From a virus, in UHGV virus genome UHGV-0092790: a DNA stretch of 39,723 nucleotides. One strand, given 5' to 3'. Both the position numbers and the translations under genes were made by a program. Positions 1-39,723 of the stretch are shown here, in pieces; positions within the stretch are counted from its first letter, which is position 1, and every line of letters begins with the position of its first letter. The notes under the pieces were generated by a model. The model worked only from the letters and a program-made list of their open reading frames with translations. It had not been told where the DNA came from and searched no databases.

Positions 1-6
1 GATTGC

Positions 7-78
7 TCTTTCATTGGTTCTTTCTTTTGCTCTTTCATTGGTTCTTTCTTTTGCTCTTTCATTGGTTCTTTCTTTTGC
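7..78. repeat. 3 perfect tandem copies of a 24-bp unit (tctttcattggttctttcttttgc) at the window edge
   Basis: Read directly from the sequence: 7-30, 31-54 and 55-78 are identical. On the minus strand the unit translates in one frame as AKERTNER and in another as QKKEPMKE, which contains an ATG. The array may extend beyond position 1. Confidence 0.9.
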
Positions 79-166
79 TTTTCAAAATCCTAATGCGAAC
101 ATCAGGCTAAAGTAGATCAGTAGTCCAAAAATAATTATAATCGCATCGATAATTATTTTTTGAATT

Positions 167-1423: not shown

Positions 1424-1427
1424 TGTT

Positions 1428-2003
1428 TTAAAAAATAATACGGTTGTTGTTGTTTTTGTTGTTTATTCTAGAATAAACTTCCCACAATTCTTCCACATGT
1501 TGTCGTGAATCGTGAAGTTTTAGGAAAAGTTCTTGTGACAAATTTATGAGTATTCCTTGTTTATTAAGATTTGTTGCACAATGTCGATAATATTTTAGCG
1601 CTAACTCCTTGTTAGAGGTGAAGCAACGTGTGTGTGGATAGCAAGATTTTAAACTAGTTCTTCCGTATTCTGGAAAATGTCCTAGAACTTGCTTTGTTTT
1701 GTATTCATACCAGTTGACAGGCTTAACTCCGACAAATAGGAAGCCTACATTGGGTCCGCCTCCAGTTTTACGCATTACAGGGATATATCCCAGCGTGTTA
1801 TCTTTTATTGTGTTAGGTGTTATATATTTTTCTATAATTTCGCCTGTTCTAGTATTTTCTAGTTCTAGAAAATATTTAATACTGATTGATTTTTTTAAAA
1901 ATTCAATCATCTTTTCGTTGTTTTCACTTTCTAACATAGTAGATACTAAAGGTGTTTTATTTCTACAAGTTAGATACATTTTAATTATATACATTGTATT
2001 CAT
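1428..2003 (-). CDS. hypothetical protein (191 aa), co-oriented with and 4 bp upstream of the amidoligase gene
   Basis: An uninterrupted ORF tightly packed against its neighbours in a minus-strand operon. It has a Gly-rich segment (RKTGGGPNVGFLFVG) and no recognisable family. Confidence 0.45.
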   Translation of the reverse strand: MNTMYIIKMYLTCRNKTPLVSTMLESENNEKMIEFLKKSISIKYFLELENTRTGEIIEKYITPNTIKDNTLGYIPVMRKTGGGPNVGFLFVGVKPVNWYEYKTKQVLGHFPEYGRTSLKSCYPHTRCFTSNKELALKYYRHCATNLNKQGILINLSQELFLKLHDSRQHVEELWEVYSRINNKNNNNRIIF

Positions 2004-2038
2004 TTTTTTTGTTTTTCTTATCCATTAAATAAAAAGTT

Positions 2039-2503
2039 TTATAGTTCTTTAAAAAGTAGTTGCGTATGTAGAATGTCCATTTTTTGTTTTTCTTCTCCTG
2101 TTTCGAGAAAAATCTTTAAATCAAGTTCAATGTTGTTTTTTAATAAACTAATATTTAGTTTATTGTCAACAGAATCAAGACCTAATGCAAAAGCGTCATG
2201 TTTATTATAAATTTCTTTTTTAAGTTCTGGGTAGGTGTAAATTACGAGTTCTTTTTTTATTAGTTTTGATAATGATCCGTAAATTAGCAATCCTTTAAAA
2301 TTCAATCCTTCAAACTCATCACGGAAAGTAAATCGATTCCCATGTCTTACAAAAATCAACGAATCTGGTTTTTGTAATTGTAGCCTCATTGCGGCTTTAA
2401 TAAATCCGAAAGAATAACCCTTTTTACAAACGCAGTATAAAAAGTTTTCCCCTTTTATTATTTTTGATACTTTGCCAAGAAAAAAGTCAATATCTCTTTT
2501 CAT
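2039..2503 (-). CDS. hypothetical protein (154 aa). It carries an internal LIYGSLSK segment with a weak resemblance to the YGSL/YGTL motif of gamma-glutamyl cyclotransferase (AIG2-like) proteins
   Basis: The ORF sits in the operon. The motif resemblance is weak and the motif is not N-terminal as it is in canonical GGCT proteins. Confidence 0.4.
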   Translation of the reverse strand: MKRDIDFFLGKVSKIIKGENFLYCVCKKGYSFGFIKAAMRLQLQKPDSLIFVRHGNRFTFRDEFEGLNFKGLLIYGSLSKLIKKELVIYTYPELKKEIYNKHDAFALGLDSVDNKLNISLLKNNIELDLKIFLETGEEKQKMDILHTQLLFKEL

Positions 2504-2786
2504 TTAGTTCTAATGTTTTAAAATTAAACCTATATTCTTTATTTTCCATTAGCGGGCATTTCCGAAAATCGCTAATCAAATCGCCTTCCGGACGGCTTTC
2601 TATCCTGAAAATCAATCTCCTAGGGTGCTTGTTTGCGATAAAAACTTCGACGATTGAACCTATCCTCCAATCACTCTTTATTGCGGAAAAAAAGCACCTT
2701 AACCCATGATTGAAATTTAGATACAATACAGGAAAGATCCGCCTTTCTTCATGCGGGTTTTCGAACTCAAATTGATAAACTTTCAT
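2487..2786 (-). CDS. hypothetical protein (99 aa)
   Basis: An ORF in the same-strand operon that overlaps the downstream gene by 17 bp. Confidence 0.4.
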   Translation of the reverse strand: MKVYQFEFENPHEERRIFPVLYLNFNHGLRCFFSAIKSDWRIGSIVEVFIANKHPRRLIFRIESRPEGDLISDFRKCPLMENKEYRFNFKTLELNEKRY

Positions 2787-2789
2787 TTC

Positions 2790-3119
2790 TTAAAAAGAAG
2801 AATAATTGATAAGTACTTCTTGCGGTAAAATGACTTTAGATTGGAATGATATTCCAATAATCGGCAATATTGTTTTTACCTCTTTATCAACTCTAAAAGC
2901 TTTTTTCTTCATGAGGCAAATATAGGAAAACTCTTCAAATCCAGCATCAATTAGCATGCATTTAAGCATTTCTCTTTCAAAAAAACCACACATTGGCTTT
3001 TTAAGCTCATAAATAATTTCATCTTCCTTTGTTTCTCCTAGTTTTCTTTTTATATTTATTTTTGTTTTTTGGCGCAAAAAACAACTTAAACAACCGTATG
3101 TATCAATTATTTTTTTCAT
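2790..3119 (-). CDS. hypothetical protein (109 aa)
   Basis: An ORF whose end overlaps the upstream gene by 4 bp (ATGA-type coupling). Confidence 0.45.
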   Translation of the reverse strand: MKKIIDTYGCLSCFLRQKTKINIKRKLGETKEDEIIYELKKPMCGFFEREMLKCMLIDAGFEEFSYICLMKKKAFRVDKEVKTILPIIGISFQSKVILPQEVLINYSSF

Positions 3120-3415
3120 TTTGAGAAAATATAAGTTTCGGATTTGTGGTAAGTGTGTGAATATCGTACCGTTTCCGCATATCTATTTCTATACGTAAAA
3201 ATATCACTCACTGGTTTTTTTTTTCTTTTTAAGTCTTCAATATGTTTAAATTCAGGCAAAGTGAATATATTAAAAATTCCTTTCAAAATATCTTTTTTTT
3301 CACGTTTTTTGAAAATTCCTATAAAAAATGTTTGTTTGTTTTTCAGTGTGGCAATGAGGCAAAACTCATCATTTTTGATGTGGTTCCAAATCTCGACTGT
3401 ATATTCCGTTTTCAT
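3116..3415 (-). CDS. hypothetical protein (99 aa), Lys-rich
   Basis: An ORF in the minus-strand operon. Confidence 0.45.
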   Translation of the reverse strand: MKTEYTVEIWNHIKNDEFCLIATLKNKQTFFIGIFKKREKKDILKGIFNIFTLPEFKHIEDLKRKKKPVSDIFTYRNRYAETVRYSHTYHKSETYIFSK

Positions 3416-3455
3416 TGCATGTTATAATTGATATAATAAAAAAGTTCACTAGGAG

Positions 3456-3692
3456 TTAATCGATCAAGGAGAAGACGAGTTGAGCACGCTCTCCCTTTTT
3501 GAAAAAAACACGTCCGGGAATATGTAAAAATACTCCGAATCTGTATTCATAAAAATAACAAGTTGCCTTTTCTAGCATTTTTGCCATTTCTTCACTGCAT
3601 CCTGTTTGTGCGTAATCGCTCAAACCCCCTAGCATGCGTTTCCGCACGTTTTTCAGTGTGGGATTCCTTGTTTCCTCTTTGTTGTATCTCAT
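3456..3692 (-). CDS. hypothetical protein (78 aa), first gene of the minus-strand block
   Basis: An ORF adjacent to the divergent intergenic region. Confidence 0.35.
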   Translation of the reverse strand: MRYNKEETRNPTLKNVRKRMLGGLSDYAQTGCSEEMAKMLEKATCYFYEYRFGVFLHIPGRVFFKKGERAQLVFSLID

Positions 3693-3739
3693 TGTTTTTT
3701 TGTTTTGTTAAATAATAAGTTTTCCTTTAATGCTAAAAG

Positions 3740-4065
3740 CCGTTGTATAGTTCCCTCTTTCGTTTATCTCTCTTATTGCCTTTCGCTTCAACGGCAATAC
3801 CTCGAAAAACGGATATCTTTCTTTCTCTTTTCCTTGTGTTCCTTTCATGCCTTTATAATATCTTTTTTCTCTCATTTGTCAATAGCTTTTTATTATTTTT
3901 TTCTCTCATGAACGTCTTTTTTTTCTCTCCCTCCCTCTCTCTTCCTCTCTTCCCTTTTGTCTTCCTTTTTCCTTCGGGGGGGGCCTTTGGGGGGGGGTTA
4001 CGCTCCCTCTTCCTCCCTGTTTCTTCTCCCTCTTTCTCGCGGCGGGGGTTTTGTTGGGTGTAATG
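3740..4065. repeat. polypyrimidine (CT-rich) low-complexity tract on the plus strand, ending in poly-G runs (G8 at 3976-3983 and G9 at 3989-3997)
   Basis: Read directly: ctctccctccctctctcttcctctcttccc ... ttcggggggggcctttgggggggggtta. The ORFs called here (3743-4063 on plus, 3853-4137 and 3998-4324 on minus) translate to low-complexity polypeptides. Confidence 0.85.
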
Positions 4066-4849
4066 GATAATCACGTCGAACGGGACTAACCAGCTTGCCC
4101 TCCCTCCTCCTAAATCCTCCTCCCTCCTGGCGATCAAATGAGTTCATCATTGGATTTTTCGAAAAAAAGGCCATTTCCTGGCATTTTGGCGTAAGTCGTT
4201 GATAAAGTGTGCGCTTAGCTAGGACGGGAAAACCCCTAATGCTTGTTGACAGATTTTCAATTTTGTGCATTCCCGGTTGCCGCATTGTCAAGCTTGCCTC
4301 TAAAAAAGCGGGCAAGGGCGGCAACCCTCAAGTACCAAGTTGCGGTTACTATTCCGCTTGACGAGGGCGATTTTTGCACCGTTATCGGTAAAACGCAACA
4401 GTTTTTTTTAGTGGAGCGTGCGCTTCCTGCGTGTAATCTTCATAACTCATTGATACTCTATCATACTTCGCATAACACACATAATGCCAAATCGAGGGCC
4501 ATAGAGGTCGACCTTGAATAACGCACTGCAAGCCACCTAGCACGCGCCGCATTTCCCGGACGATATGTGTATCGGCTCACCTCTCAAAAGGCCCGTACAA
4601 GCCAACCTCGCAAGCCGTTTTTCGGGCAAATCGTAGTAATTAGAATAATTATTGAGGTTTTGCCCACTTTAGGCCATGTTGCGGCGTTGCTTCGGAGCCA
4701 CCTAGCCATGAGGGACTGCAAGCCCGTCAGCACCGCACCACCCCTAGGTGCTTGGTGTGCTGCCATGCCATACAGGGGGCGCCGGGGAAAAGTCGCGGGT
4801 GTTTTGCGCTGGACAAAGAAGGTATCACGCAGTGTAATAGGAAAAAAAG
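4066..4849. other. about 0.8 kb ORF-free core of the divergent intergenic region, roughly 50% GC. It is a candidate replication origin, packaging site or promoter region
   Basis: No ORF of 110 aa or longer lies here. The region sits between a minus-strand block on the left and a plus-strand block on the right, immediately upstream of the lysis and terminase genes. Confidence 0.4.
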
Positions 4850-5003
4850 AAAAAGAGAAAGGAGAAAACGTAGTTTGTTAGAGAAAAAGGAAAAAATAGT
4901 ATGTATAAAGAGAAAAGGAAGTTGATATGAGAGAAGAAGAGGGAAGAGGAAGAAAGAAAGAATAAAAAAGAAAGAAAGAAGGAGAAAGGAGAAGAAGAGA
5001 GAG
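4850..5003. repeat. polypurine (GA-rich) low-complexity tract on the plus strand, mirroring the CT tract at 3740-4065
   Basis: Read directly: ggaaaaaaagaaaaagagaaaggagaaaacg ... aagaaagaaagaaggagaaaggagaagaagagagag. Confidence 0.85.
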
Positions 5004-5438
5004 ATGACGGGAAAAGAGCAGATGGAAGAGTTGTGTAAGGAGTTGAGAGAAGAGCTTAGGAGTGGAGTGATAAGGGGATTGGGAGAGGGATTAGCGAGGC
5101 GAGGGATGAGTCAGGCGATATTCAAGCGGATGGGAGGGCCGGAGGTATGGGCGAGGGTGAGCAAAGGAAGAGAGAGAAGAGAAGGAGGAGAGGGGAAAAA
5201 GGAGGAAGAGGGAGAGTTGAAGAAGGGAGAGCTGTGTGAGTTTTTAAGCAGGGTGATAAGAGGTGGGGAGCTAGGGATGAGTGGGAAGGAGAAGATGAGT
5301 GCTGTGGGGTTGTACATGAGGTTGAAGGGGTGGGACAAGGTGAAGGAGAAGGAGGAAGAGATGGTAGGGGAAGAGTTGGTAGAGCTGTTAGGAGGGAGAA
5401 AGGGAGTCGGAGAGAAGAATGATACGGAGGAAGGTTGA
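5004..5438 (+). CDS. hypothetical E/K/G/R-rich low-complexity protein (144 aa). It may be an artefact of the T-depleted strand
   Basis: The ORF lies on a purine-rich strand where stop codons are depleted. Some segments are not low-complexity (AIFKRMGGPEVWARV, LYMRLKGWDKV). Confidence 0.25.
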   Translation: MTGKEQMEELCKELREELRSGVIRGLGEGLARRGMSQAIFKRMGGPEVWARVSKGRERREGGEGKKEEEGELKKGELCEFLSRVIRGGELGMSGKEKMSAVGLYMRLKGWDKVKEKEEEMVGEELVELLGGRKGVGEKNDTEEG

Positions 5439-20418: not shown

Positions 20419-22371
20419 ATGGCGATCATCGATACTAGAGACATAAGACTGGGTGTCAGTAGTGCGAACAAGGAGGGGTTGTTGCCTTCTCCTTCAAGCC
20501 GTTATTTGCGCTCCACTTATGATGCGGCCAGATATGTTCCTATTGGAAATGAGTTCGACAAAGAGAGCCGAGTAAAGGAGCTTGGAGACCTTGGAGAAGG
20601 ACTCACAATGTGGTCGAAGGCGCAAGCGGAAGTCGAGACAACGAACGACAGTATTCAGTCACGGCGCATGCAGGCAGAGTACATGGAAGCTTCCACACAG
20701 GTTTTCAATCAGCTTCAAAAAGACCCCAGCACGATGAACAATCCTGCGGTTTGGCTGGACGCCTATACGGAGGAGATGACATCAAGGGCGGCAGAGATTA
20801 ACAACAAGTATGCCAAATCGTTTTATGTTGGGCGCAATCAGATGTTGTCCAATGAAAGGCTCAACCTGTTGCTGAAAGAGGAGAAGAACAAGGTGGGCCT
20901 GATGGCGGCAGACAGAATATCAAAGATGGCCGCAGACGAAACTAATGCGGCGTTCAAGATTGCTGTGGCCAACAGGGATTTCGGGTTGGCTAGGGAGATA
21001 AATAAAAGCCCCTACCTAACACCTGCGGAAAAGATGTTGAATGAGAATGGAATTGTTCAAGCCCAGACACAAGACATCATCCAGCAGGAAACATTGAGGA
21101 ATCCTTGGGGTGTGCTGGAAGAGGTGAACAGGGATGGCGCTGTACAGCGTCGTGAATTGACCTACGAGCAACAGCAGTACGCATTGAACCAAGCGCAGGG
21201 CCGGATAAGCATGATTCAAAAGCAATCGTATGACTCTCTCGTACAGAAGTTTTTGTTCAACCCGGAAGAGTTTGAGATGGATGTCGCCAAAAAGCTATTG
21301 GACACCAACCAGCTGACGACCCAGCAATATGTCAACCTCCTCAACATGAAGAAGACCATGAGCGCCAAGATTGAGCCGACTCCAATGCAGTTTGCGGCCA
21401 TGTCTAATTGGGCGGTCAAGCTTTCAGAGGATTATCACAAAGAGTCGCCAGAGGGACAGGCCAATATCCTCTCCCAAGCTGAACGGCTTCTTGAGCGGAT
21501 GAATTTCAGCACCAGCGACAAGAACTCATTGCTCAAGCTTGTAACACAAAAGATTTCCCCGGAAACGTTCAATCAGGCTGACAAGTTGGTAGAGAAATTT
21601 TGGGATAACGGCCAACTACCTCTGACCAAGACAGCGGATTACACCGGGACCCAAGGAGGAACTACTCCGATTTATTTGACGGAGGGAGAGTTTAATACCC
21701 AGTTCAAAGAGAGGAAGAACCAGTTTTTCTTAGACAAAAGCAGGACATACCTAGACCCGAAAACGGCAAAAGACAGGTATGCGGTAATGGAGTATGTGCC
21801 GGACTCGAACAATCTGTTCCTGCAAGAAAAGATAAAAAGCGAAGTTCGTTCCGTCCTTTCTGATAAGATTGCTGAATATAGGGCAGAACACAATGGGAAA
21901 TCTCCTACCGGACAAGAGCTTTATGAGCTTGTTTTTTTCGCACAAGAAGAGGCGTTCTCCCGGAATAATATCAGCAGTATTGACCCATTATCTTCTGCCT
22001 CTGTTTATCCTTCTGGACAGCAAGACAGAGACGAAAGAAAGGCGACATTTATTCCGAACAACGTTAGAGTGTCGGCTATATCGAATAAAGCTTCTATAGA
22101 TATTCCGACTAATGGTGCTTTTATTGTTTGGGCCGGAAGTAACTCTTTCATTACAAACGAGAAAGACTACTTGAGCATATATAAACGGGCCGGGGCGCCC
22201 CCTCAAGGATTTATCGTAGCAGATGAATCTTTCCTCCAAGCTCCACACAAAGATTTAATGGATGTGCAAGCTATGATTTCGGCCAAAGCGATAGCGGCGA
22301 AAGCTGGATTAGATGCACAAGGAGAGCAGGGAATTTATTGTGCATTGCTTTCCTATTGGAATAATTTATAA
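20419..22371 (+). CDS. putative internal virion or ejection protein (650 aa)
   Basis: A helical, Q/E/K-rich protein. By synteny it corresponds to T7 gp15 and P22 gp20. Confidence 0.4.
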   Translation: MAIIDTRDIRLGVSSANKEGLLPSPSSRYLRSTYDAARYVPIGNEFDKESRVKELGDLGEGLTMWSKAQAEVETTNDSIQSRRMQAEYMEASTQVFNQLQKDPSTMNNPAVWLDAYTEEMTSRAAEINNKYAKSFYVGRNQMLSNERLNLLLKEEKNKVGLMAADRISKMAADETNAAFKIAVANRDFGLAREINKSPYLTPAEKMLNENGIVQAQTQDIIQQETLRNPWGVLEEVNRDGAVQRRELTYEQQQYALNQAQGRISMIQKQSYDSLVQKFLFNPEEFEMDVAKKLLDTNQLTTQQYVNLLNMKKTMSAKIEPTPMQFAAMSNWAVKLSEDYHKESPEGQANILSQAERLLERMNFSTSDKNSLLKLVTQKISPETFNQADKLVEKFWDNGQLPLTKTADYTGTQGGTTPIYLTEGEFNTQFKERKNQFFLDKSRTYLDPKTAKDRYAVMEYVPDSNNLFLQEKIKSEVRSVLSDKIAEYRAEHNGKSPTGQELYELVFFAQEEAFSRNNISSIDPLSSASVYPSGQQDRDERKATFIPNNVRVSAISNKASIDIPTNGAFIVWAGSNSFITNEKDYLSIYKRAGAPPQGFIVADESFLQAPHKDLMDVQAMISAKAIAAKAGLDAQGEQGIYCALLSYWNNL

Positions 22372-22378
22372 ACAAATC

Positions 22379-25300
22379 ATGGAAGAGCTTTCAGAACAAC
22401 CCGAAGATTCTATCCTGTTGGATGAAATAAAGAAAATGAATTCGGGCCTCGCTTCTAATAAGGAGCAACCTGAAATAACAGAAGAGGATTTAGAAGCAAA
22501 TCCTCAAGCTTACTCTTCTGAACAAATTGAAGGGGTTTTAAGAAACAAGAGAAGTATTCGCACAAAGCTTGACGATTATTTAAGGATGTCGTCTAGCTTG
22601 CTTCCTACTACTCCACGAGAAGCCTTAGATGCCGTAGGGACATTGCGTGAGGAACTGCAAGCAAATGGTATAGACCCGGAGTATGAGAGGTATCGTGAGA
22701 AGATAAAAAGAAACGAAGATATAGTTTATTCGGTTACTAGGTATATCAATCCAACAACAGGCTTGTTTGGGGATGTTCCTGCACAAGATGTAACAAACAA
22801 TAAGCTGGAAAAAATACTTAGTGCTGAGCAAATTAGGGATTTCAATAATGCCCCGCAGTTTATGCGAGACAAATATGTTTTCAATCGCATTGTTGAAAAC
22901 TTTTTCCCGGAAGGGGAGATGGATAAAGGGTATGCACTAGAACTCCTGAAAAAGCATTATCAAACCGACTCCATGCACGGAGTTGTCAGCAAATACGCTC
23001 AAGAGCTTCAAAGGAACAAGGATGAGGAGGCAGCATACAATGAAGCCTCTACCAGATTTTTCGATTCCTTTATAGAAACAGGAGGCGATTACCAGAAAGC
23101 AATCGACAGCTTGGAAGGCAATCTAAACCTGTATGCGGAAAACATTTTCAACCAAGAACCTGCGCTTAAATACATTTACCAGCGTGCGTATAACTCCGTC
23201 TCATGGATTAAAGATGAATACATAGAGAGCGGAGAGCTGGATTGGGACAAGATGGCAGACAGGTTGTTGAAGCTTGGGGAAGGAGAGACGTTCTCTCTAG
23301 CCATTCAGATGCTTCCCTACATGTTGCCCAAAGACAACCGGACATGGCTTGTACAGGCGATTGACGATACAGCTTCTGATATTAGCGGATTTACGAGGCT
23401 GATGCTTTCCGGTGGAGGAGATAATGCCAAAGCCGAGCGTCTTGCTTTGGCTATCCAGCAGGAGTATAGGATGGGACGCGACTATCCTACTTCATGGGTC
23501 GGAATGTTCTTTAAGGGTGCTGTTGAACAAGTACCCAAAATCACAGCAGTAACTGCCAGCACTATTGGGGCAACGGCGGCGTCAGGAGGCAATCCGGCCG
23601 TTGGGTATGCAACAGCTACAGCAGTAGGTTCTATGGTTTATGGTTCAACTGTAGCATTGGAGGCATATAGAACAAACTCATCTAAAGCTGGTTCTGTAGC
23701 GTATGGTTTATCGGTTGGAGCCTTAGAAGGTTTATTGGAAAACGCAGTAATAAAGATGGGCGCGTTAGCGGCCAAGGGAGCCAAATCTGTTGAAGTGGGA
23801 AGCAAGTTAGCAACCACATACAACAAATTACCCGGAACCGTAAGAGCCGCCGGGGCGGGCGCACTTTCTGAATATGTACAGGAAGTTTCCGCAGACCCTA
23901 TTTATATAGGCTTGGAAAATTTGATGCGCTCCGCAGGTTTTGACCTTACACAACAAAACACCTTGAGCAACTGGTGGGAGACTTTGGATTTAACACAACC
24001 AGAGCTTTTAGGGGCCACAGTGTTGCTTGGCGGTTCATTAGGAGCCGTAGGCGGTTATCAGGCAAACCACCTTATCAATAGAGTAGGAAGAAGCGCAGAA
24101 GCTCTTACAGCCTTAGGAATCCCCCAGACGGAAGCAACAGCTATTGCTAACATGCCAGATGGGAAAGAGCGCACCAATCGTCTGACAGCGGCTCTTCGAG
24201 ACAACAAGGTGAGTTCTGATGTCCAGATAACACATCAACAGGCAGGAGTGTTCCTGAACTTTTTAGCGAAGAATGCAGAAAGATTTAAGGATGTGGAGCT
24301 TATGCCTAACATCACTGATAATGGTGATGGAACCTTTAATGTTATCGAGAAAGACCCGGTAAGCGGTGCAGAAAAGACAACGACTGTTACAGATGAAATT
24401 GCTGGCACATTCATGTCTCAAGCGTTGCAGTCAAATCCGGGATTTATCAGGGCATTAAATATTTTCGCCCAAGAAGAGATAGAGTCAGGGGTGGGCAAGG
24501 AGACGAAGATAAAGAGCTATACTCCTGACGAACTCCGAGCAAAAATCCAATCCACAGAAGACAACAATGCAACTATAGCACGACTTAGGGCTTTGGCTGT
24601 AATTAACCAAGACCCAGAATTGTTGCAGAGTTTTCGTGATGGGAAAGTAAGTATTGAAGATGTAGCAAATGAGCTGGAAATTGTATCTGCATATAGAGAT
24701 GGCACGATTGCTGTTGCGAGGGGTGAAGCGAATCCTCTCAATATTCTGGAAGAAATAATTCACGCCCGTGCAATATCCGATTTGGAGAGCGGCGTTATTT
24801 CTCGAAGCGTCATTGAAACACAGGTAAGGAATTACTTGGAGTTCTTGGGACGTAGTGCGGAAGAGATAGGGGATTTGAGCAATGACGTTGTGTTGCAGGA
24901 ACATTTGGCGAATATGGGGAAGGCTTTGGCAACAACGCCGGAACTGTTTTCCGCAATGCCCGGCAATGTTCAAACAATCCTTGAGTGGCAGAAGGACGCT
25001 ATAGCGGAAGTTGGGAATGTCTTTGCGGAAGGCGCTCTGATAAAAGAGGCCATTGAGCAGGGCATTGTCTCTCCCGATTTTGTCAAGTGGTCTAAATCTT
25101 TGGCGACTATGGCCGAACGTCGTGACGGTCAGGATATGGCAGAGCTTGTCAATGGTGCGACCGGAGAAAGCATTTTGCCAATGGGCCAGAGCCTTCCTTC
25201 CGTGAGGAGGCGTGGAACCATTGATGTAACTCCTTCTGTAAGAACCATTAATGAAGCCATATCAAACATAGTCAATGGCGCATCGGAAAGGTCTATAGGC

Positions 25301-28300
25301 CAGCTCCACAAATTGCAGAGGAGCATGATAAAGCTTTCGGAAAGGTTTTCTCAAGGGAAGCTGACCGAACGAGGACAACAGAAAGCGTTACTGAATTCTG
25401 TTCTCTCTATCGCTAATGCAATGGCTTCCGGTAGCCGGAAGTTTATCTCCAACCAGCTTGCCGAAAGGCTTGCGAATCCCAAGAGCAACGAAGCGTTTAA
25501 TGCGGACATGAAGACTGCATTGGATGCCACAGTAGCGGCCTTGAACGAAAGAGCGGAGGCGGCGAGCCGGAAGCAGTTGGAGCGCATTATTCAGGACGAG
25601 ATAAACAGGAGGGTTGAGCAAGCGGACGCTAAAGCCAAGAAGGATTTCAACAGGGAAATGAAATTCCTCCGGGGTTTAATCTCCAAGGAAATAAGGAAAG
25701 ACATCAAGGAGGAAAGAGCGGAGGCGGCGGCAGAGAAGAAGCTTGCCAGTAAAAGCATACAGAGCTTGCGAAGGCTTGCCGAGAATGCTTTTAAGGACAC
25801 CAAGGGGCGCTCCCGTTCTTTGGATGCACAAGCCAGAGAGGAGACTATGGATGCCCTTGAGGTTATGGCTATGTCTCCTTCCGAAGTTGCAACCCAGCTT
25901 GAAGTCTTGGATAGCACCATAGACGAGCTTCAAAACCAGCCTGCCACAGAAGAACTTACTCTGGAACTGGAAAATCTGGAAAACCAAAAGAATCTCCTTG
26001 AGGTGTTTGGTAGTGCGTTGTATCGGGAGAAGATGCCTAACGGAAGGTATAAGTATGCTCTCAATGCACAGCAACTTGCGGAAGCAGTTAAGACATTGAA
26101 GGAGCTACAGCGTGAAGGGCGACTCCGCAGGAAAAAGGTTAATGAACGTATTGAGCGCTTCTATAATGACTTTAACGCTAAAATCAATGAGCGAGTAGGA
26201 GGAGAGAAGAATCGTGATGCCCTTAGAAAAGCCGTAACGGAAAGGGACCAACGGGGGACGGGCTTTTTGGATAGAATCTTCACGCAATTCATGAGCCTTC
26301 AACAACTCCTCGAAGTGATGTCTTCCATGAAATCCTTTAAGGACATAGGGACATTCTTGCAGAACAACGTCCAATTCGCAGAGCAACAGCGAGGGGTAGA
26401 AAAAGAAAAGGCTACGTCCAATGCGATTCGCATCATGCGTGGAATGATGGAGATTGCAGGGCAGAACTCTCCAAGGTATTTTGATGAGCTTTCTACAAAA
26501 ACTATTCCCTTTATGGGGCATGAGCTAACCAAGTATGGCCTTGTCAAAGTCTATCAGACATTGAGAGAGAAGGATGGATTGGATGTATTGAGAGAAAACC
26601 TTGGAGACAAGGGGATGGATTTCGGCAACTATCGTAAGTACCAACAGGAGTTGGAGGGCTTAAACAAGAGCCTTGATGATGGCGCCATTACTTCCGAAGA
26701 GTTTGAGTCCAAGTTGGAAGCCGTTGAAGAAGAATACCTTGCGAGGAAGGAAAAAGATATTGCCAAGCTATTGGAACTGCTTGGGCCGGATGGGCTTTAC
26801 CTTGCTGACGAATTACAGAACCTGTATCGGGAAAAAGGCGAGAAGCTACGGGCGTTCATGGCAGAGAACTATGGCCAGACGGTTATCCTTGATGACTACT
26901 ATACGCCCCGCAATATTGCCGCCTATAATACAATGCAAGAAGGGGATATGGATGCTTACAGTAAGGGACACGTCACAAGGACGGGCTTGCCCTCTTACGC
27001 AAAGCACCGGAACACTCCCTCTTCGGCGGCGCTCTCTCTGGAAATAAACCCTCTTGGGGAATATCTTCGTTATAGCTCTATCATGGAGGGGTGGATGACA
27101 GCTTCGGAACTGGTCAACTTCAACAACCGGGTATGGGCTAATCCCACAACGAATGCACAGTTGCAGAAATTATTAGGCCCAGCCAATTTCGAGGCGGCAA
27201 ACAAAGCCCTGTATTACTTCATCAACGAGGGGCGTGTGTATGCCCAAAAGAGCGTGTTGGCAGAGGTAATGGGGAAAGTGTTCCAAGTATTGGCTAAGAC
27301 AAGGATTGCTTTCTCCTTGGCTTCTCTGGTGCGCTCTGGGGCGGCTTTGTTCAACCCTATCGTTGGTAGCAACTTCTCCATGATGGAAATTATCAAAGGC
27401 GTGGCAGAGGTGACAAGCGGGAACTATAAAGGTTTTACCCTTGAAGAGCTTCGTGACTTGGAGGCAATGAAGGAACGTAAGTACCGTGGATGGGAAGACC
27501 GTGTGCTTGCCGATAAGGCATTAAGCATTCCCCTAAAAAAACAAGCGCAATGGGGATATTGGCAGGAAGCGGGCATGAGCGGCCTTATGGCTTTTGACTG
27601 GTGGAGCATATCTTTTGTGAATCAGCTGACCTCCCACATGCTTGCTAATCGCGGTTTGTCGCATGAACAGATAAGATGGGAGCTTAACAAAAACATCTAC
27701 CAGACGGCACAGCCTTTATCTACCTCCGCTAAGGCTATCCACTTGATAGGTGGAAGCTCATTTGAGCAAGCCCAGTTCCTTTTCTTGTCTGACGTGATGA
27801 ACAAGTTCGGCCTAGTGATGATGCAAGGCAAAAAGGATGTTCCTTTCTGGGAGGCTTTTCAGGGAGCCTTTCGTGTTTATACTATTGCCGCTCTTGCTAA
27901 TGGTCTCTTCAACGGCTTGGCTACAGGTTTGTTTGGCGATAAAGACAAAGAGGACGACTTCATGAGCAACTTCTTATTGACTTCGGTATTGAGTCCGATT
28001 GTTTCTGTCCCTATGTTCGGCGGGTTTGCAGAGTGGTGCGCTTCCCTTATTAGCGGTGGTAAGCAATTCAGTCTGGGACGAGCCGATATGGCTGATTTGT
28101 CCAAATCAATTCAAGGCTTAGTCAGAAGTATTGTGAAGACGTATGAGACTGTATCGGAAAAATGGGACAAGGAAGGTGCTTTGACTACCAATGATTACAT
28201 TGATATGGTTTCCTATGTAGGCAAAAATATTGGGAGTGTCGCATCGGCTACCACAATATTTGGTACTTCTGGGCAGAGTATGACCAAAGCTCTAGAGATG

Positions 28301-28540
28301 GTAGGTGCATTATCAAATGCCCTTTCACAAGCTAAGACGACCACACAGAAATTCCTTCCAGAGTCAGTAAATCCCCTCTATACCGAAAAAGAAGCTATGA
28401 AGGAGAGGGCTAGGCAGATAAGAAGGGAGAAGAAGAAGGCCAAGCAGGAAAACGGCGAAAGGTCAGCAACCTACAGAAAACTTTCACGGGAATTAAGGCA
28501 AATAAACAAACAGTTGAAGATAAGGGGCTGGGAAGACTAG
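22379..28540 (+). CDS. giant virion protein (about 2053 aa), a candidate internal core or ejection protein, or a tape-measure-like protein
   Basis: I placed the start at ATG 22379, 8 bp after the upstream stop; the track's 22313 overlaps the previous gene by 59 bp. It has N-proximal Gly/Ala-rich hydrophobic segments (GATAASGGNPAVGYATATAVGSMVYGSTVALEAY and LLGATVLLGGSLGAVGGY), long predicted coiled coils and a basic C-terminus. By synteny it corresponds to T7 gp16 and P22 gp16. Confidence 0.45.
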   Translation: MEELSEQPEDSILLDEIKKMNSGLASNKEQPEITEEDLEANPQAYSSEQIEGVLRNKRSIRTKLDDYLRMSSSLLPTTPREALDAVGTLREELQANGIDPEYERYREKIKRNEDIVYSVTRYINPTTGLFGDVPAQDVTNNKLEKILSAEQIRDFNNAPQFMRDKYVFNRIVENFFPEGEMDKGYALELLKKHYQTDSMHGVVSKYAQELQRNKDEEAAYNEASTRFFDSFIETGGDYQKAIDSLEGNLNLYAENIFNQEPALKYIYQRAYNSVSWIKDEYIESGELDWDKMADRLLKLGEGETFSLAIQMLPYMLPKDNRTWLVQAIDDTASDISGFTRLMLSGGGDNAKAERLALAIQQEYRMGRDYPTSWVGMFFKGAVEQVPKITAVTASTIGATAASGGNPAVGYATATAVGSMVYGSTVALEAYRTNSSKAGSVAYGLSVGALEGLLENAVIKMGALAAKGAKSVEVGSKLATTYNKLPGTVRAAGAGALSEYVQEVSADPIYIGLENLMRSAGFDLTQQNTLSNWWETLDLTQPELLGATVLLGGSLGAVGGYQANHLINRVGRSAEALTALGIPQTEATAIANMPDGKERTNRLTAALRDNKVSSDVQITHQQAGVFLNFLAKNAERFKDVELMPNITDNGDGTFNVIEKDPVSGAEKTTTVTDEIAGTFMSQALQSNPGFIRALNIFAQEEIESGVGKETKIKSYTPDELRAKIQSTEDNNATIARLRALAVINQDPELLQSFRDGKVSIEDVANELEIVSAYRDGTIAVARGEANPLNILEEIIHARAISDLESGVISRSVIETQVRNYLEFLGRSAEEIGDLSNDVVLQEHLANMGKALATTPELFSAMPGNVQTILEWQKDAIAEVGNVFAEGALIKEAIEQGIVSPDFVKWSKSLATMAERRDGQDMAELVNGATGESILPMGQSLPSVRRRGTIDVTPSVRTINEAISNIVNGASERSIGQLHKLQRSMIKLSERFSQGKLTERGQQKALLNSVLSIANAMASGSRKFISNQLAERLANPKSNEAFNADMKTALDATVAALNERAEAASRKQLERIIQDEINRRVEQADAKAKKDFNREMKFLRGLISKEIRKDIKEERAEAAAEKKLASKSIQSLRRLAENAFKDTKGRSRSLDAQAREETMDALEVMAMSPSEVATQLEVLDSTIDELQNQPATEELTLELENLENQKNLLEVFGSALYREKMPNGRYKYALNAQQLAEAVKTLKELQREGRLRRKKVNERIERFYNDFNAKINERVGGEKNRDALRKAVTERDQRGTGFLDRIFTQFMSLQQLLEVMSSMKSFKDIGTFLQNNVQFAEQQRGVEKEKATSNAIRIMRGMMEIAGQNSPRYFDELSTKTIPFMGHELTKYGLVKVYQTLREKDGLDVLRENLGDKGMDFGNYRKYQQELEGLNKSLDDGAITSEEFESKLEAVEEEYLARKEKDIAKLLELLGPDGLYLADELQNLYREKGEKLRAFMAENYGQTVILDDYYTPRNIAAYNTMQEGDMDAYSKGHVTRTGLPSYAKHRNTPSSAALSLEINPLGEYLRYSSIMEGWMTASELVNFNNRVWANPTTNAQLQKLLGPANFEAANKALYYFINEGRVYAQKSVLAEVMGKVFQVLAKTRIAFSLASLVRSGAALFNPIVGSNFSMMEIIKGVAEVTSGNYKGFTLEELRDLEAMKERKYRGWEDRVLADKALSIPLKKQAQWGYWQEAGMSGLMAFDWWSISFVNQLTSHMLANRGLSHEQIRWELNKNIYQTAQPLSTSAKAIHLIGGSSFEQAQFLFLSDVMNKFGLVMMQGKKDVPFWEAFQGAFRVYTIAALANGLFNGLATGLFGDKDKEDDFMSNFLLTSVLSPIVSVPMFGGFAEWCASLISGGKQFSLGRADMADLSKSIQGLVRSIVKTYETVSEKWDKEGALTTNDYIDMVSYVGKNIGSVASATTIFGTSGQSMTKALEMVGALSNALSQAKTTTQKFLPESVNPLYTEKEAMKERARQIRREKKKAKQENGERSATYRKLSRELRQINKQLKIRGWED

Positions 28541-37996: not shown

Positions 37997-38629
37997 ATGA
38001 ATCACCATTCCCATGACTATCCTTTAGAAGAAATGGAACGTATTTCTGAGCCGAAACTGGCAAAAGACATACTGAATTTAGAAGAACTATTGAAGAGATT
38101 AGATGAAATACCGCTAACAACAGAACAGGAAACGAAAGAATGGCGGCGAAAAGAAAAAGAAAAAGAACGCATAGCATCATGGAAAAAACGGTTGAGGCAA
38201 TCCGGCGTGCCTCAAGGGTTTTATGATGCTTGCGTGAATGGAAAGATCGACAAGAGCCGGATATTTCCATTCCTGAAAAACTTAAGTAGCGGGTGTTTAT
38301 TTGTCTGCACGCCGGAAAAAGGTAAAACCTTTTCCGCATGCGCTTTGATATCGCAGGAATTATGGAATGGCAGGTTAGCTTTTTACATGAAAGCTCCTGA
38401 ACTGGAAAGAGAAATGGCCAGTTATAAAAAGGATGCGCGCCTGATAAATAGAGCGCAATCAATCCCGCTCTTAGTGCTGGACGATTTTGAGGGAGTGCGG
38501 ATGAGTGCGAATTCATCCTCCGATTTTATCGCCTTGCTAAAAAAAAGAAATGATTTTAATTTTTTAACAATTTTGAATTCAAAAAAACGAACCTTTTTCC
38601 TCGAACAGATCGAAGAGGCGGTAAGTTAG
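37997..38629 (+). CDS. DnaC/IstB-like AAA+ ATPase, a putative helicase loader
   Basis: It has a Walker A-like motif (CTPEKGKTFSACALI) and a Walker B-like motif (PLLVLDDFEG) in the arrangement typical of DnaC/IstB. Confidence 0.5.
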   Translation: MNHHSHDYPLEEMERISEPKLAKDILNLEELLKRLDEIPLTTEQETKEWRRKEKEKERIASWKKRLRQSGVPQGFYDACVNGKIDKSRIFPFLKNLSSGCLFVCTPEKGKTFSACALISQELWNGRLAFYMKAPELEREMASYKKDARLINRAQSIPLLVLDDFEGVRMSANSSSDFIALLKKRNDFNFLTILNSKKRTFFLEQIEEAVS

Positions 38630-38656
38630 TGTTCCCTTAACCACCAGAAAATAAAA

Positions 38657-38701
38657 GTGTAATAAAAAACCACTGTAGCCTAAATAAAGGCTACAGTGGT
38701 T
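38657..38701. terminator. bidirectional intrinsic terminator between convergent genes
   Basis: A perfect 13-bp inverted repeat (aaccactgtagcc / ggctacagtggtt) is flanked by an A-run on the plus side, which gives a T-run for the minus-strand transcript, and by T-rich sequence after it. Confidence 0.65.
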
Positions 38702-38725
38702 GAATTTGTGTAGTTTTATGACAAA

Positions 38726-39412
38726 CTATTGAACTCTTTTTTCAGGTATTAGTTTGCTATTAAATGAGTAGTATTTTTTTGAGTAATTGTAGGTCTTGGA
38801 ATATTTAGAATATCCGGTTTTGTTGCTCCAATAAACCTCATCACCATAAAAAGAGCAGTAACTATATTCTTTTTTTTGATAAGAGTCGTTCGAAAAATAA
38901 GCAAATTTGTTTTTATCCGGTCTTTCGAAATTGCCATAAAACAATATCTTTCCTTTTTTCCAAAAAACAAATTTGCTTTGGCCAATGATAGAGTTAACCA
39001 TATCATCAATGCCCTCATTTGTTTCCTTGATACCTGTTTCGCCAAAGGCTGGCAAAAACAGGTATCGGAAGAAGGTTTCACTATCGGTTAAATCTCCTTT
39101 ATTTTTTATGGAAAGAACGCCGTTGTGGCAAAAATACCAGCCGCTACCGTTCCAACCGTGAACGTTTTTTTCAGAAATAGAGCCATGAGTTTTGATTCTA
39201 GCGTGAAGAAGGACTACGTAATCATTAGGAATTTTTTCCCATGTGGCCACAACTTCCTTTTTTAGAAGAGTTCTAATTAGAAATTCCGGGTTATCGTCTT
39301 TGTGTCCTCTCTTAAAACCTAGCAGGAAAAATCCGTCTGGATTATTTGTTAGGCAATTTTGAAAACGTTGAGTGCCGATATCTTTCTTGAATCCGTAAGC
39401 AATGATACACAT
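38726..39412 (-). CDS. class-II (Ntn-hydrolase) glutamine amidotransferase-like protein, YafJ-like
   Basis: Cys2 sits directly after the initiator Met (MCIIAYG), as the N-terminal nucleophile. Downstream it reads LLHARIKTHGSISEKNVHGW ... YFCHNGVL, matching the R-x-AT-x-G ... N-x-HP ... HNG pattern of class-II amidotransferase domains. Confidence 0.6.
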   Translation of the reverse strand: MCIIAYGFKKDIGTQRFQNCLTNNPDGFFLLGFKRGHKDDNPEFLIRTLLKKEVVATWEKIPNDYVVLLHARIKTHGSISEKNVHGWNGSGWYFCHNGVLSIKNKGDLTDSETFFRYLFLPAFGETGIKETNEGIDDMVNSIIGQSKFVFWKKGKILFYGNFERPDKNKFAYFSNDSYQKKEYSYCSFYGDEVYWSNKTGYSKYSKTYNYSKKYYSFNSKLIPEKRVQ

Positions 39413-39425
39413 GTTTTTTGTTTTG

Positions 39426-39716
39426 TTATTGTTTTTTTTCTGCGTTTTTTGTGATGATATTTTTGATACCTTCCATTAGGGAAAAAGCTTTATTTTCTTC
39501 TTCCGGCGTCTCGTAAAAGATTTTTACGAAAGTATATTGCTGATATGGAGTGTATTTCATTTTAACTCCGTTTCTAAGCAAATAATTGATAGTTTCCAGC
39601 CTTATTTTTTGAAATAGATCTTGAGATAAAGGCCTATGGAAAACATTTGAGAATTCTAAGTTAAGGCTACCTATCAAGCTCGAAATATAGCATTCTAGGT
39701 GTGTTTGTCGTCGCAA
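39426..39716 (-). CDS. hypothetical protein (96 aa)
   Basis: An ORF upstream of the amidotransferase-like gene, on the same strand. Confidence 0.35.
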   Translation of the reverse strand: MRRQTHLECYISSLIGSLNLEFSNVFHRPLSQDLFQKIRLETINYLLRNGVKMKYTPYQQYTFVKIFYETPEEENKAFSLMEGIKNIITKNAEKKQ

Positions 39717-39723
39717 AAAAGAG

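Follow-up and report, generated by a model that had tools for sequence, protein, structure and literature searches.

Does the run of minus-strand genes at the left edge of this phage assembly continue, across the ends of the sequence, into the amidotransferase-like gene at its right edge, and does the resulting unit finish at the hairpin beyond that gene? The first-pass annotation of the window, that is, the whole stretch of 39,723 nucleotides analysed here (virus genome UHGV-0092790), had proposed as much. The reading that emerges below is held with considerable confidence: the genome would be circular and cut open in a repeat, and a single minus-strand block encoding two enzymes would extend from a promoter to a hairpin terminator. 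Several parts of it are established: the hairpin exists, the ends adjoin in relatives, the genes stand in the order given, the small ORFs carry a coding signal, and both enzymes have a family assignment, with a predicted fold in the case of the amidotransferase-like protein. The features found at the two ends are the following.

3–84, no strand: tandem repeat, 24 nt in 3.5 copies, with 12-nt sub-units
1–62, minus strand: 5' part of a junction-spanning ORF of 119 aa, encoding (M/K)KE(Q/P) tetrapeptide repeats
39426–39723, minus strand: 3' part of the same ORF, called as a gene of 107–115 aa in ENA contigs
82–186, minus strand: ORF for a 34-aa single-pass membrane peptide, MKNIKNKIQKIIIDAIIIIFGLLIYFSLMFALGF, with a gene call in ENA contigs

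Adjacency was assessed by joining the end of the window to its start and aligning the product to related phage contigs. The joined sequence is recovered as one HSP of ~5 kb across the join, at 89–95% identity, in eight IMG/VR contigs (L001–L004, L006, L007, L009 and L011), and the join itself, where ...GAAAGAGCAATC runs directly into CTCTTTTTTGCG..., is base-identical to internal sequence of these contigs. The same gene order is found in four further ENA contigs (40.4–40.8 kb and 111.8 kb) that start elsewhere, which brings the number of independent relatives that read through the join unbroken to at least 12. Related contigs of 40.4–41.8 kb begin at different places. On the evidence of these relatives the ends of the window are taken to be contiguous, as the first-pass annotation had assumed for positions 1 and 39723; it had named a fragment of a larger replicon as the case that would overturn this, and the base-exact join in the relatives speaks for adjacency. 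The proposal that the amidoligase block at the left edge is contiguous with the amidotransferase gene likewise agrees with the gene order of the relatives. The window is thus best described as a circular assembly, complete or nearly so, of a tailed-phage genome of ~40 kb, cut open inside the tandem repeat. The copy number of this repeat differs among relatives and may be collapsed at the join. Contigs L005 and L008 also break inside it. Tandem repeats of 80–150 nt are a classic breakpoint of short-read assembly, and the repeat is the probable cause of the break.

That three assemblies, namely the window, L005 and L008, stop inside one and the same repeat could also be expected if the window ends were true physical termini, and the 111.8-kb contig that holds one relative would suit a window that forms part of a larger replicon; in either case the two halves would not be co-transcribed in virion-derived DNA. 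Such an arrangement is very improbable, as the point in question falls within a conserved ORF that is under purifying selection, the region lies internally in the contigs counted above, and the repeat is of the length typical of short-read breaks. Moreover, no prophage copy was detected among 185,579 GTDB species genomes and no integrase in the window.

The ORF that crosses the join reads from 62 to 1 and then from 39723 to 39426, its 5' end being formed by the 12/24-nt repeat. It is open in 11 of 11 IMG/VR relatives, at lengths of 103–143 aa, and in its C-terminal part variable sites fall on the three codon positions in the ratio 13/7/39. It is regarded as coding because the frame is open in all relatives and the codon-position bias holds downstream of the repeat. 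Preservation of the frame by repeat indels was rejected as coding evidence, since a 12-nt unit keeps the frame automatically. The 96-aa ORF with a TTG start in the earlier ORF list is a truncation artefact, namely the 3' part of the 119-aa ORF left on one side of the cut. Two ORFs had been overlooked at that stage, one of them the conserved 34-aa membrane-peptide ORF (186–82), which overlaps the amidoligase stop by 20 nt and has variable sites distributed 3/1/9 over the codon positions.

With the circular assembly as the frame, the rest of the block is laid out as follows, in the order in which it would be transcribed.

3855–3882, minus strand: sigma-70-like promoter, TTGACA–16 nt–TATTAT, 11/12 match, the best on this strand in 1–4600
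3708–3848, minus strand: small ORF of 46 aa, putatively coding, directly downstream of the promoter-like site
3456–3692, minus strand: 78-aa gene, found in some relatives only (mosaic upstream end)
3116–3415, minus strand: 99-aa gene, with an ATGA overlap with the next gene, only 50–80% identical in relatives, no function assigned
2790–3119, minus strand: 109-aa gene, no function assigned
2487–2786, minus strand: 99-aa gene, with a 17-nt overlap with the next gene, no function assigned
2039–2503, minus strand: 154-aa gene, no function assigned
1428–2003, minus strand: 191-aa gene, no function assigned, lineage-restricted, deleted in relative L010
167–1423, minus strand: Amidoligase_2-like gene, 418 aa, of the glutamine-synthetase/gamma-glutamylcysteine-ligase type of carboxylate-amine ligases
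38726–39412, minus strand: class-II (Ntn) glutamine-amidotransferase-like gene, 228 aa, last gene of the block

Rejoined, the block occupies ~4.9 kb of the minus strand and comprises 10–11 tightly packed genes with ~30% G+C, as against ~47% elsewhere; the low-G+C island spans both window ends (25–38% in 38600–39723 and 1–3900, 40–55% elsewhere). Nine or more genes had been suggested earlier; the count of 10–11 takes in the junction ORF, the 34-aa ORF and the promoter upstream. Successive genes are separated by 40, −4, 3, −17, 35, 4, −20, 19 and 13 nt. Wherever relatives have sequence, they keep this order between the 109-aa gene and the amidotransferase gene, and with it a convergent DnaC-like gene beyond the latter. 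Homologues of the 191-aa protein were found in close relatives only, and its AlphaFold model was discarded (pLDDT 42).

The operon had been thought to start at 3692, with the 78-aa gene; the likely promoter lies further upstream, at 3882–3855, and this site is probably the start of the unit. The element is identical or near-identical in six relatives (L007 and L011–L015). At the place equivalent to the 46-aa ORF a 56-aa gene is called in L012–L015, with tblastn matches that are partial only. Most genes lack Shine–Dalgarno sites, and the promoter was scored against the sigma-70 consensus, which may not be the type used by the host. A Bacteroidota-type promoter pattern (TTTG..TAnnTTTG) occurs once against 1.9 expected and is therefore uninformative on the host.

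A single strand, short or overlapping gene junctions, one promoter-like site and one terminator-like site are the layout of an operon, and we infer that the block would be read as a single transcript. Alternatively, the ends may be adjacent and the block divided into several transcription units, the hairpin ending only the last of them (amidoligase to amidotransferase, or the last genes). Room for such divisions would exist at two junctions where the genes do not overlap, with gaps of 40 nt (3416–3455) and 35 nt (2004–2038), and a weak promoter-like match (9/12) is located at 1615–1587. The upstream genes of 46, 78 and 99 aa are mosaic in relatives, as opposed to the constant stretch from the 109-aa gene to the amidotransferase gene, and the host's promoter type may be a different one. 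Against a division stands the fact that the only strong promoter match, a conserved one, precedes the entire block, and that most junctions overlap or measure no more than 19 nt. When the joined minus strand was scanned from 3901 through the cut to 38624, the hairpin was the single terminator-like site; the lack of one inside the block is a weak argument, given that shuffles yield ~1.5 per strand over such a length. Division into several units is on balance unlikely, with a chance that is small but real.

On the single-transcript reading, transcription would start at the sigma-70-like promoter and proceed through the possible 46-aa ORF, the genes of 78, 99, 109, 99, 154 and 191 aa, the 418-aa amidoligase and the 34-aa membrane peptide, and then through the cut-spanning 119-aa repeat protein to the 228-aa amidotransferase-like protein. 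It would end at a strong Rho-independent hairpin and U-run (38701–38658), where an opposing transcript would perhaps end too.

38668–38701, minus strand: intrinsic-terminator hairpin with a 14-bp perfect stem and a 6-nt loop, between convergent genes at the end of the block
38658–38667, minus strand: U-tract 3' of the hairpin, UUUUAUUACA, with six consecutive U if the two A–U closing pairs are counted as tail
37997–38629, plus strand: DnaC/IstB-like helicase-loader gene, its convergent position conserved in relatives, whose transcript would meet the hairpin

The first-pass annotation had described a perfect 13-bp hairpin with a T-run after the amidotransferase-like gene. Hairpin and U-run are real, and the stem measures 14 bp, a closing pair having been left out. 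Seen from the minus strand, the arms AACCACTGTAGCCT and AGGCTACAGTGGTT enclose the loop TTATTT and form 14 perfect pairs, 7 of which are G–C. The tail reads TTTT(TT)ATTACA (in RNA, UUUU(UU)AUUACA) on the minus strand and GAATTTGTGT on the plus strand. The hairpin lies 24 nt past the stop codon of the amidotransferase-like gene and 38 nt past that of the DnaC/IstB-like gene. It is the sole 100%-complementary 14-nt inverted repeat of the whole window, and the longest perfect one there. The minus-strand RNA folds at −24.9 kcal/mol (z −6.92) and the plus-strand RNA at −25.5 kcal/mol (z −6.57), a stability reached by 0 of 200 shuffles. The terminator rule is satisfied on both strands; between 37500 and 39723 it picks out five sites, against 1.5 ± 1.5 in shuffles.

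Comparison of relatives points to maintenance of the pairing. The stem is kept through a double change from A–U to C–G (CG in six and AU in three distinct rows), a second change converts C–G into U·G, and 92.9% of alignment cells are paired, as compared with 23–63% when the partner is slid. This is probably one covariation event, at most two, and gives modest support for maintained pairing. The U-tract does not vary among relatives. At stem pair 12, C is replaced by U in L001, L002, L005, L006, L010 and L011; the variant forms a G·U wobble in the minus-strand RNA only and a C·A mismatch in the plus-strand RNA. Selection on the minus-strand RNA is favoured because the variant pairs only there, and the hairpin appears to be selected as part of that RNA.

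An inverted repeat of this kind might act mainly at the level of DNA, as a palindrome bound by a protein or as a site of recombination or cruciform formation, or it might serve mainly the plus-strand replication genes as a terminator and not the amidotransferase block. A palindromic binding site would keep symmetric changes too; in L007 and L012–L015 the loop is inverted and the arms are retained, which indicates flipping of DNA; and the plus-strand fold is equally stable and passes the rule. These roles are nonetheless quite improbable: the variant at pair 12 would be a mismatch in a DNA palindrome, the T-run is unbroken on the minus-strand side and interrupted in the plus tail, and the element has the canonical position just past the amidotransferase stop codon, followed by an invariant U-tract. 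On the bidirectional action claimed for the terminator of the block, the same data point both ways. The rule is satisfied on each strand and the two folds are of equal stability, so that arrest of the opposing transcript is plausible; the interrupted plus tail and the mismatched variant of the relatives speak against it.

The label given to the last gene has stood up well. The protein begins MCIIAYG, with M1 and C2 invariant in 38 homologues, and consists of a catalytic core (residues 1–183) and a disordered tail rich in Tyr, Ser and Lys (184–228). Variable sites in the gene are distributed 36/20/92 over the codon positions. Pfam GATase_4 matches with an E-value of 0.0028 and 17.1 bits, under the curated cut-off of 23; many homologues at 35–44% identity carry precomputed PF13230 matches, and the family profile matches class-II amidotransferases in the PDB (3mdn, 1e-6; GlmS, 9e-5). 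The AlphaFold model, with a pLDDT of 81 overall and mostly above 90 in the core, adopts the predicted four-layer alpha-beta-beta-alpha Ntn fold. Class-II amidotransferase and EgtC domains (GlmS, EgtC, GFAT, PurF Ntn) account for all 50 of its best PDB matches, and among viral proteins it is closest to members of Gn_AT_II. H70, R72, T75, H76, G77, N83, H85, H96, N97 and G98 are invariant, as are D107, T109, D110, S111, E112 and T113; from what is known of GlmS and PurF, these residues presumably fill oxyanion and substrate-binding roles.

The 418-aa protein is matched by Pfam Amidoligase_2 (PF12224) with an E-value of 0.0036 and 17.6 bits, under the curated cut-off of 22, and by phrog_2443, 'amidoligase enzyme', at 3e-6. 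In an exhaustive search, 34 of 40 distant relatives matched PF12224 (best 3e-13). Ten residues are invariant in 40 sequences (E184, E186, D207, S209, E218, H260, H262, R294, E348 and R350) and would correspond to the acidic/His/Arg set of a glutamine-synthetase-like ligase core. A sequence profile search recovered no PDB relative. Among 50,697 GenBank phage records, blastn with both window ends and tblastn with the amidoligase produced zero matches, and tblastn matches to the amidotransferase were confined to MEP401/402 and a single gut phage without annotation, at ~30% identity. The window holds no tRNAs and nothing at Rfam gathering scores; PADLOC defence models matched no protein of the block, and NCBIfam yielded nothing meaningful for it.

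After the ends are joined, the two enzyme genes lie on the same strand, 374 nt apart (stop codon 167–169, ATG at 39412), and their products are predicted to work together. The amidoligase would spend ATP on activating a carboxylate of some substrate. The Cys2 Ntn enzyme would have one of two tasks, either to provide ammonia taken from glutamine or, in the manner of EgtC, to trim an amide of the gamma-glutamyl type. To our knowledge, amidation or gamma-glutamylation chemistry of this kind has been predicted for phages since 2009 and demonstrated for none. A doubtful, speculative extension would make the low-G+C block of ten genes a self-contained module, used either in taking over the host or for superinfection exclusion; both enzymes, acting with the membrane peptide and the variable-repeat protein, would amidate or gamma-glutamylate some target, be it in the cell envelope, a protein or a nucleic acid. 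A role in DNA modification, suggested by co-occurrence in PMC8989533, is unsupported: elsewhere in the window Pfam matches included no kinase, hydroxymethylase or glycosylase-like domains, and no thymidine-hypermodification context was detected.

For annotation, the genome is to be treated as circular, the 119-aa cut-spanning gene replaces the 96-aa TTG ORF, and the gene for the 34-aa membrane peptide is added. Short-read assemblies of this abundant phage lineage break time and again at one spot, a tandem repeat that is part of a coding sequence. The putative unit from promoter to terminator, compact and conserved, holds an uncharacterised amidoligase–amidotransferase pair and offers a clean cassette for cloning. 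The wrap-around block in itself is correct but ordinary, and will not surprise phage genomicists.

Like circularly closed metagenomic phage assemblies, the window has ends that abut exactly when set against relatives whose contigs start elsewhere; unlike them, it lacks a terminal direct repeat and is cut at a non-arbitrary place, a tandem repeat within a gene. The putative terminator resembles the Rho-independent terminators common to convergent genes in its perfect, G+C-containing stem, its short loop, the U-run 3' of it on one strand and the A-run on its far side, the short convergent intergenic gap and the rule satisfied on both strands. It differs in its interrupted plus-strand U-tract (GAAUUUGUGU) and, as judged from sequence, in a wobble variant tolerated in the minus-strand RNA only. 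The amidotransferase model shares its fold with EgtC (4zfl), YafJ-type GATase_4 proteins (3mdn, 1te5) and the GlmS glutaminase domain (1xff) (Foldseek E 6e-5, probability 1.00), along with the N-terminal Cys nucleophile and the HxRxxTHG ... HNG ... DSE motifs; identity is only 13–16%, and the phage core is shorter (~183 aa) and followed by the disordered tail.

The two enzymes appear to represent a known phage gene pair, the function of which is predicted only. A phage pairing of Amidoligase_2 with a class-II amidotransferase was described by Iyer, Abhiman, Burroughs and Aravind in 2009, as cited in PMC10580990, and the pair is annotated in LUZ24-like phages (PMC3890496) and in the OM43 phages MEP401/402 (PMC10580990). 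In contrast to these, two small ORFs, for the 34-aa membrane peptide and for the 119-aa repeat protein, separate the enzymes here, and both enzymes are divergent, the amidotransferase being ~30% identical to that of MEP402. Unlike LUZ24-like phages, the block is without an ATP-grasp or COOH-NH2 ligase partner (no Pfam, PHROG or NCBIfam match), a partner that is not universal, as the MEP402 pair is also without an annotated one adjoining. In common with the known pairs, the catalytic residues are conserved and the amidoligase lies upstream of the Ntn amidotransferase, on one strand and in a non-structural region of a tailed-phage genome. The amidoligase gene directly precedes the amidotransferase gene in four distant phage contexts, MEP402 (gp06–gp07), L018, L019 and L021.

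In related phages the two ends of the window are contiguous. Eleven related IMG/VR contigs (L001-L011) encode the 228-aa product of the window's Ntn-amidotransferase-like gene at 88-96% identity. The last 3 kb and first 6 kb of the window were joined and the reverse complement was aligned to these relatives: in L001-L004, L006, L007, L009 and L011 one HSP of ~5 kb (86-95% identity) runs unbroken through the join. In a multiple alignment the junction, where GAAAGAGCAATC abuts CTCTTTTTTGCGACG, equals the relatives' internal sequence base for base, with nothing missing or duplicated. The first-pass annotation had proposed a gene unit wrapping around the ends, a reading that depends on positions 1 and 39723 being neighbours, and in these relatives they are. 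Four ENA contigs retrieved via the amidoligase (L012-L015; 40,374-40,796 bp and one of 111,781 bp) have other start points and the same gene order. By tblastn this order is 109, 99, 154 and 191 aa, amidoligase, 34 aa, repeat protein, amidotransferase and convergent DnaC-like gene, and it holds in every relative that contains the sequence. Mosaicism is confined to the upstream end (46-, 78- and 99-aa genes); L010 is without the 191-aa gene. The compositional island that spans both window ends, with a G+C content of 25-38% from ~38600 to the right edge and from 1 to ~3900 against 40-55% elsewhere, agrees with adjacency. The longest ENA contig (L012, ena:ERZ28437000:k119_70692, 111,781 bp) is 2.7x genome length and may represent either an integrated copy or a concatemer, chimeric between strains, of a circular genome; 21 kb of it were examined.

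Features around the joined ends of the window
3-84: tandem repeat, 24 nt x 3.5 with 12-nt sub-units, opening the window
3882-3855, minus strand: promoter-like TTGACA-16-TATTAT, 11/12, the best of the strand in 1-4600; this consensus may not be of the host's type
3848-3708, minus strand: possible 46-aa ORF
3692, 3415, 3119, 2786, 2503, 2003, 1423, 186, 62, 39412, minus strand: gene starts, in order
186-82, minus strand: 34-aa ORF, MKNIKNKIQKIIIDAIIIIFGLLIYFSLMFALGF, missed by the first-pass annotation
38668-38701: perfect inverted repeat AACCACTGTAGCCT-N6-AGGCTACAGTGGTT, terminator-like on both strands in the scan
37997-38629, plus strand: IstB_IS21/DnaC-like helicase-loader gene by family matches, convergent to the minus-strand block

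Once the ends are rejoined, a 119-aa minus-strand frame runs from an ATG at 62 across the join into 39716-39426; the 96-aa TTG ORF formerly assigned there is a truncation artefact, being part of this frame. Through the repeat it reads MKEQKKEP MKEQKKEP MKEQ, each 12/24-nt unit combining a purine-rich stretch with an in-frame ATG. The frame is open in 11/11 IMG/VR relatives (103-143 aa), with (M/K)KE(Q/P) units ranging from one (L010, a lone MKEQ at the start) to 11 (L004), and the gene calls of the ENA contigs give it a length of 107-115 aa. Variable sites in its non-repeat part fall 13/7/39 at codon positions 1/2/3, a distribution like that of the amidotransferase gene (36/20/92). Retention of the frame across repeat indels was dropped as proof of coding: the repeat unit is 12 nt and preserves frame anyway, so that preservation alone proves nothing. 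As L005 and L008 also start inside the repeat, and three independent assemblies thus break there, the simplest reading of the break is that short-read assembly failed at a tandem repeat, of which the window may show fewer copies than the true number. In L010, sequence at 3216-3263 and 4623-4934 records the loss of the 191-aa gene (a 16-aa remnant persists) and of all tetrapeptide units except one.

The block ends at the hairpin, 24 nt past the stop of the minus-strand 228-aa gene (38726-39412) and 38 nt past that of the convergent DnaC-like gene. Among hairpin-type repeats with 100% complementarity it is the longest of the whole window (39,723 bases); its presence at this point is confirmed, while the stem given earlier as 13 bp has 14 counting the closing pair. 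The predicted RNA fold reaches -24.9 kcal/mol on the minus strand (z -6.92) and -25.5 kcal/mol on the plus strand (z -6.57), each equalled by 0/200 shuffles. The minus-strand tail, TTTTATTACA, has six consecutive U if the two terminal A-U pairs do not form; on the plus strand the tail is GAATTTGTGT. Another terminator-like hairpin, of 8 pairs and on both strands, lies within the DnaC-like gene (38192-38215) and is probably a chance match.

Variation among relatives bears on whether the hairpin is under selection, and on which strand. At the fifth stem pair three distinct sequences have A-U and six have C-G, both sides having changed; at the twelfth, five have C-G and four U·G. Paired cells amount to 92.9%, against 23-63% with partners slid. 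Since these changes probably represent only one or two events, they lend modest support to pairing being kept by selection. The U·G pair is a legal wobble in minus-strand RNA only, and a C·A mismatch in plus-strand RNA or a DNA palindrome; this asymmetry and the unbroken minus-side U-run both suggest that selection acts on the minus-strand transcript. The hairpin had been called a bidirectional terminator: as the plus strand also passes the terminator rule, the hairpin may stop the opposing DnaC-like transcript too, but support for this is weaker than for the minus strand. The loop (38682-38687) is inverted in 5/15 relatives (L007, L012-L015) with arms unchanged, reading TAAATAAA or TAAAATAAA rather than TTTATTTA in the minus-strand view; this is a DNA-level flip between inverted arms, typical of palindromes and neutral for the RNA stem. 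The L010 stem carries two mismatches.

Ten to eleven genes are counted on the rejoined minus strand, in keeping with the nine or more predicted, and successive gaps are 40, -4, 3, -17, 35, 4, -20, 19 and 13 nt. The unit probably begins not at 3692, as had been thought, but upstream, with the promoter-like site at 3882-3855, whose sequence L007 and L011-L015 share exactly or almost exactly. From 3901 to 38624 on the joined strand the hairpin at 38701-38668 is the only terminator match; with ~1.5 sites per strand expected by chance, the absence of internal terminators is weak evidence. This gene architecture fits one ~4.9-kb operon. Across the window most genes have an A-rich leader, for example AACAAAACAAAAAAC-ATG, and no Shine-Dalgarno sequence, which resembles Bacteroidota-type translation initiation; the Bacteroidota-type promoter pattern shows no enrichment. 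Apart from the two enzymes, the island's proteins (38600-39723 and 1-3900) have no family match and are lineage-restricted, which together with the low G+C suggests that the ~5-kb island is a horizontally acquired or fast-evolving early/accessory module.

Outside the block the window encodes a terminase, T7-type portal, protease, major head protein, tail proteins, Amidase_3 lysin, exonuclease and RuvC, and on this gene content it is a whole phage genome; no integrase occurs among its encoded proteins. The portal and a 2075-aa ORF at 22313-28540 (no Pfam match) suggest that the virion is podovirus-like and contains a giant protein, either internal or part of the tail. At 3890-4110, a long homopurine/homopyrimidine tract that includes G8-G9 runs (GGGGGGGGCCTTTGGGGGGGGG, plus strand) separates the block from divergent plus-strand genes and could be an origin, packaging site or regulatory region. 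Where the plus-strand run begins, GC skew is extreme (up to +0.8 at 4800-5400) and AAGAAGAAGA-type repeats occur at 4852-4996.

The Ntn-amidotransferase-like label is borne out by several lines of evidence. The 228-aa protein starts Met-Cys and on its own matches Pfam GATase_4 at E 0.0028 (17.1 bits, under the cut-off of 23). A large-database search yields 224 homologues, many with a precomputed PF13230 hit or the name "predicted glutamine amidotransferase"; in the 38 aligned, M1, C2, H70, R72, T75-H76-G77, N83, H85, H96-N97-G98 and D107/T109-D110-S111-E112-T113 are invariant. The family profile matches class-II amidotransferases in the PDB (3mdn, 1e-6; GlmS glutaminase domain, 9e-5). In the AlphaFold model confidence is high for most of residues 1-183, and residues 184-228 are disordered; the model's best 50 PDB matches are all class-II Ntn domains (GlmS, EgtC, GFAT, PurF, 1te5, 3mdn) and its best viral matches "Gn_AT_II domain" proteins. 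Judged from sequence and model, the protein may act in ammonia transfer or as an EgtC-like amidohydrolase.

The 418-aa protein matches Pfam Amidoligase_2 at E 0.0036, under the cut-off, and PHROG 2443 "amidoligase enzyme" at 3e-6; by sequence it has no recognisable relative among solved structures. Searched exhaustively, 1.84 billion representatives yield 350 relatives. PF12224 is matched by 34 of the 40 aligned (best 3e-13), and E184, E186, D207, E218, H260, H262, R294, E348 and R350 are invariant across the 40. Between the two enzyme genes lies the 34-aa ORF, overlapping the amidoligase stop by 20 nt and found in every relative (variable sites 3/1/9 by codon position); its product has a basic N-terminus and a single hydrophobic helix. 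The amidoligase would activate a carboxylate with ATP, and the Cys2 Ntn enzyme would deliver glutamine ammonia to give an amide, or trim a gamma-glutamyl-type adduct. The location of the membrane peptide gene between the two is a hint that the target is associated with the envelope.

The first-pass annotation holds in observation and interpretation alike, with gene content and unit start corrected, and the result is an annotation and topology fix of this phage genome. In some viral contigs, amidoligase and amidotransferase domains are accompanied by thymidine-hypermodification genes (PMC8989533), whereas the window carries the enzyme pair with none of these genes. An Amidoligase_2-like gene immediately upstream of the amidotransferase homologue is found in four distant phage contexts: the OM43 phage MEP402 (gp06-gp07), L018, L019 and L021. 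Annotations of LUZ24-like Pseudomonas phages (PMC3890496) and of OM43 phages include the pair; for the latter phages it is treated as a system of unknown function that might serve to modify the cell wall or to make a secondary metabolite (PMC10580990, where the passage on the pair cites Iyer et al. 2009). The window offers a cleanly delimited copy of this known, so far uncharacterised, phage gene pair.
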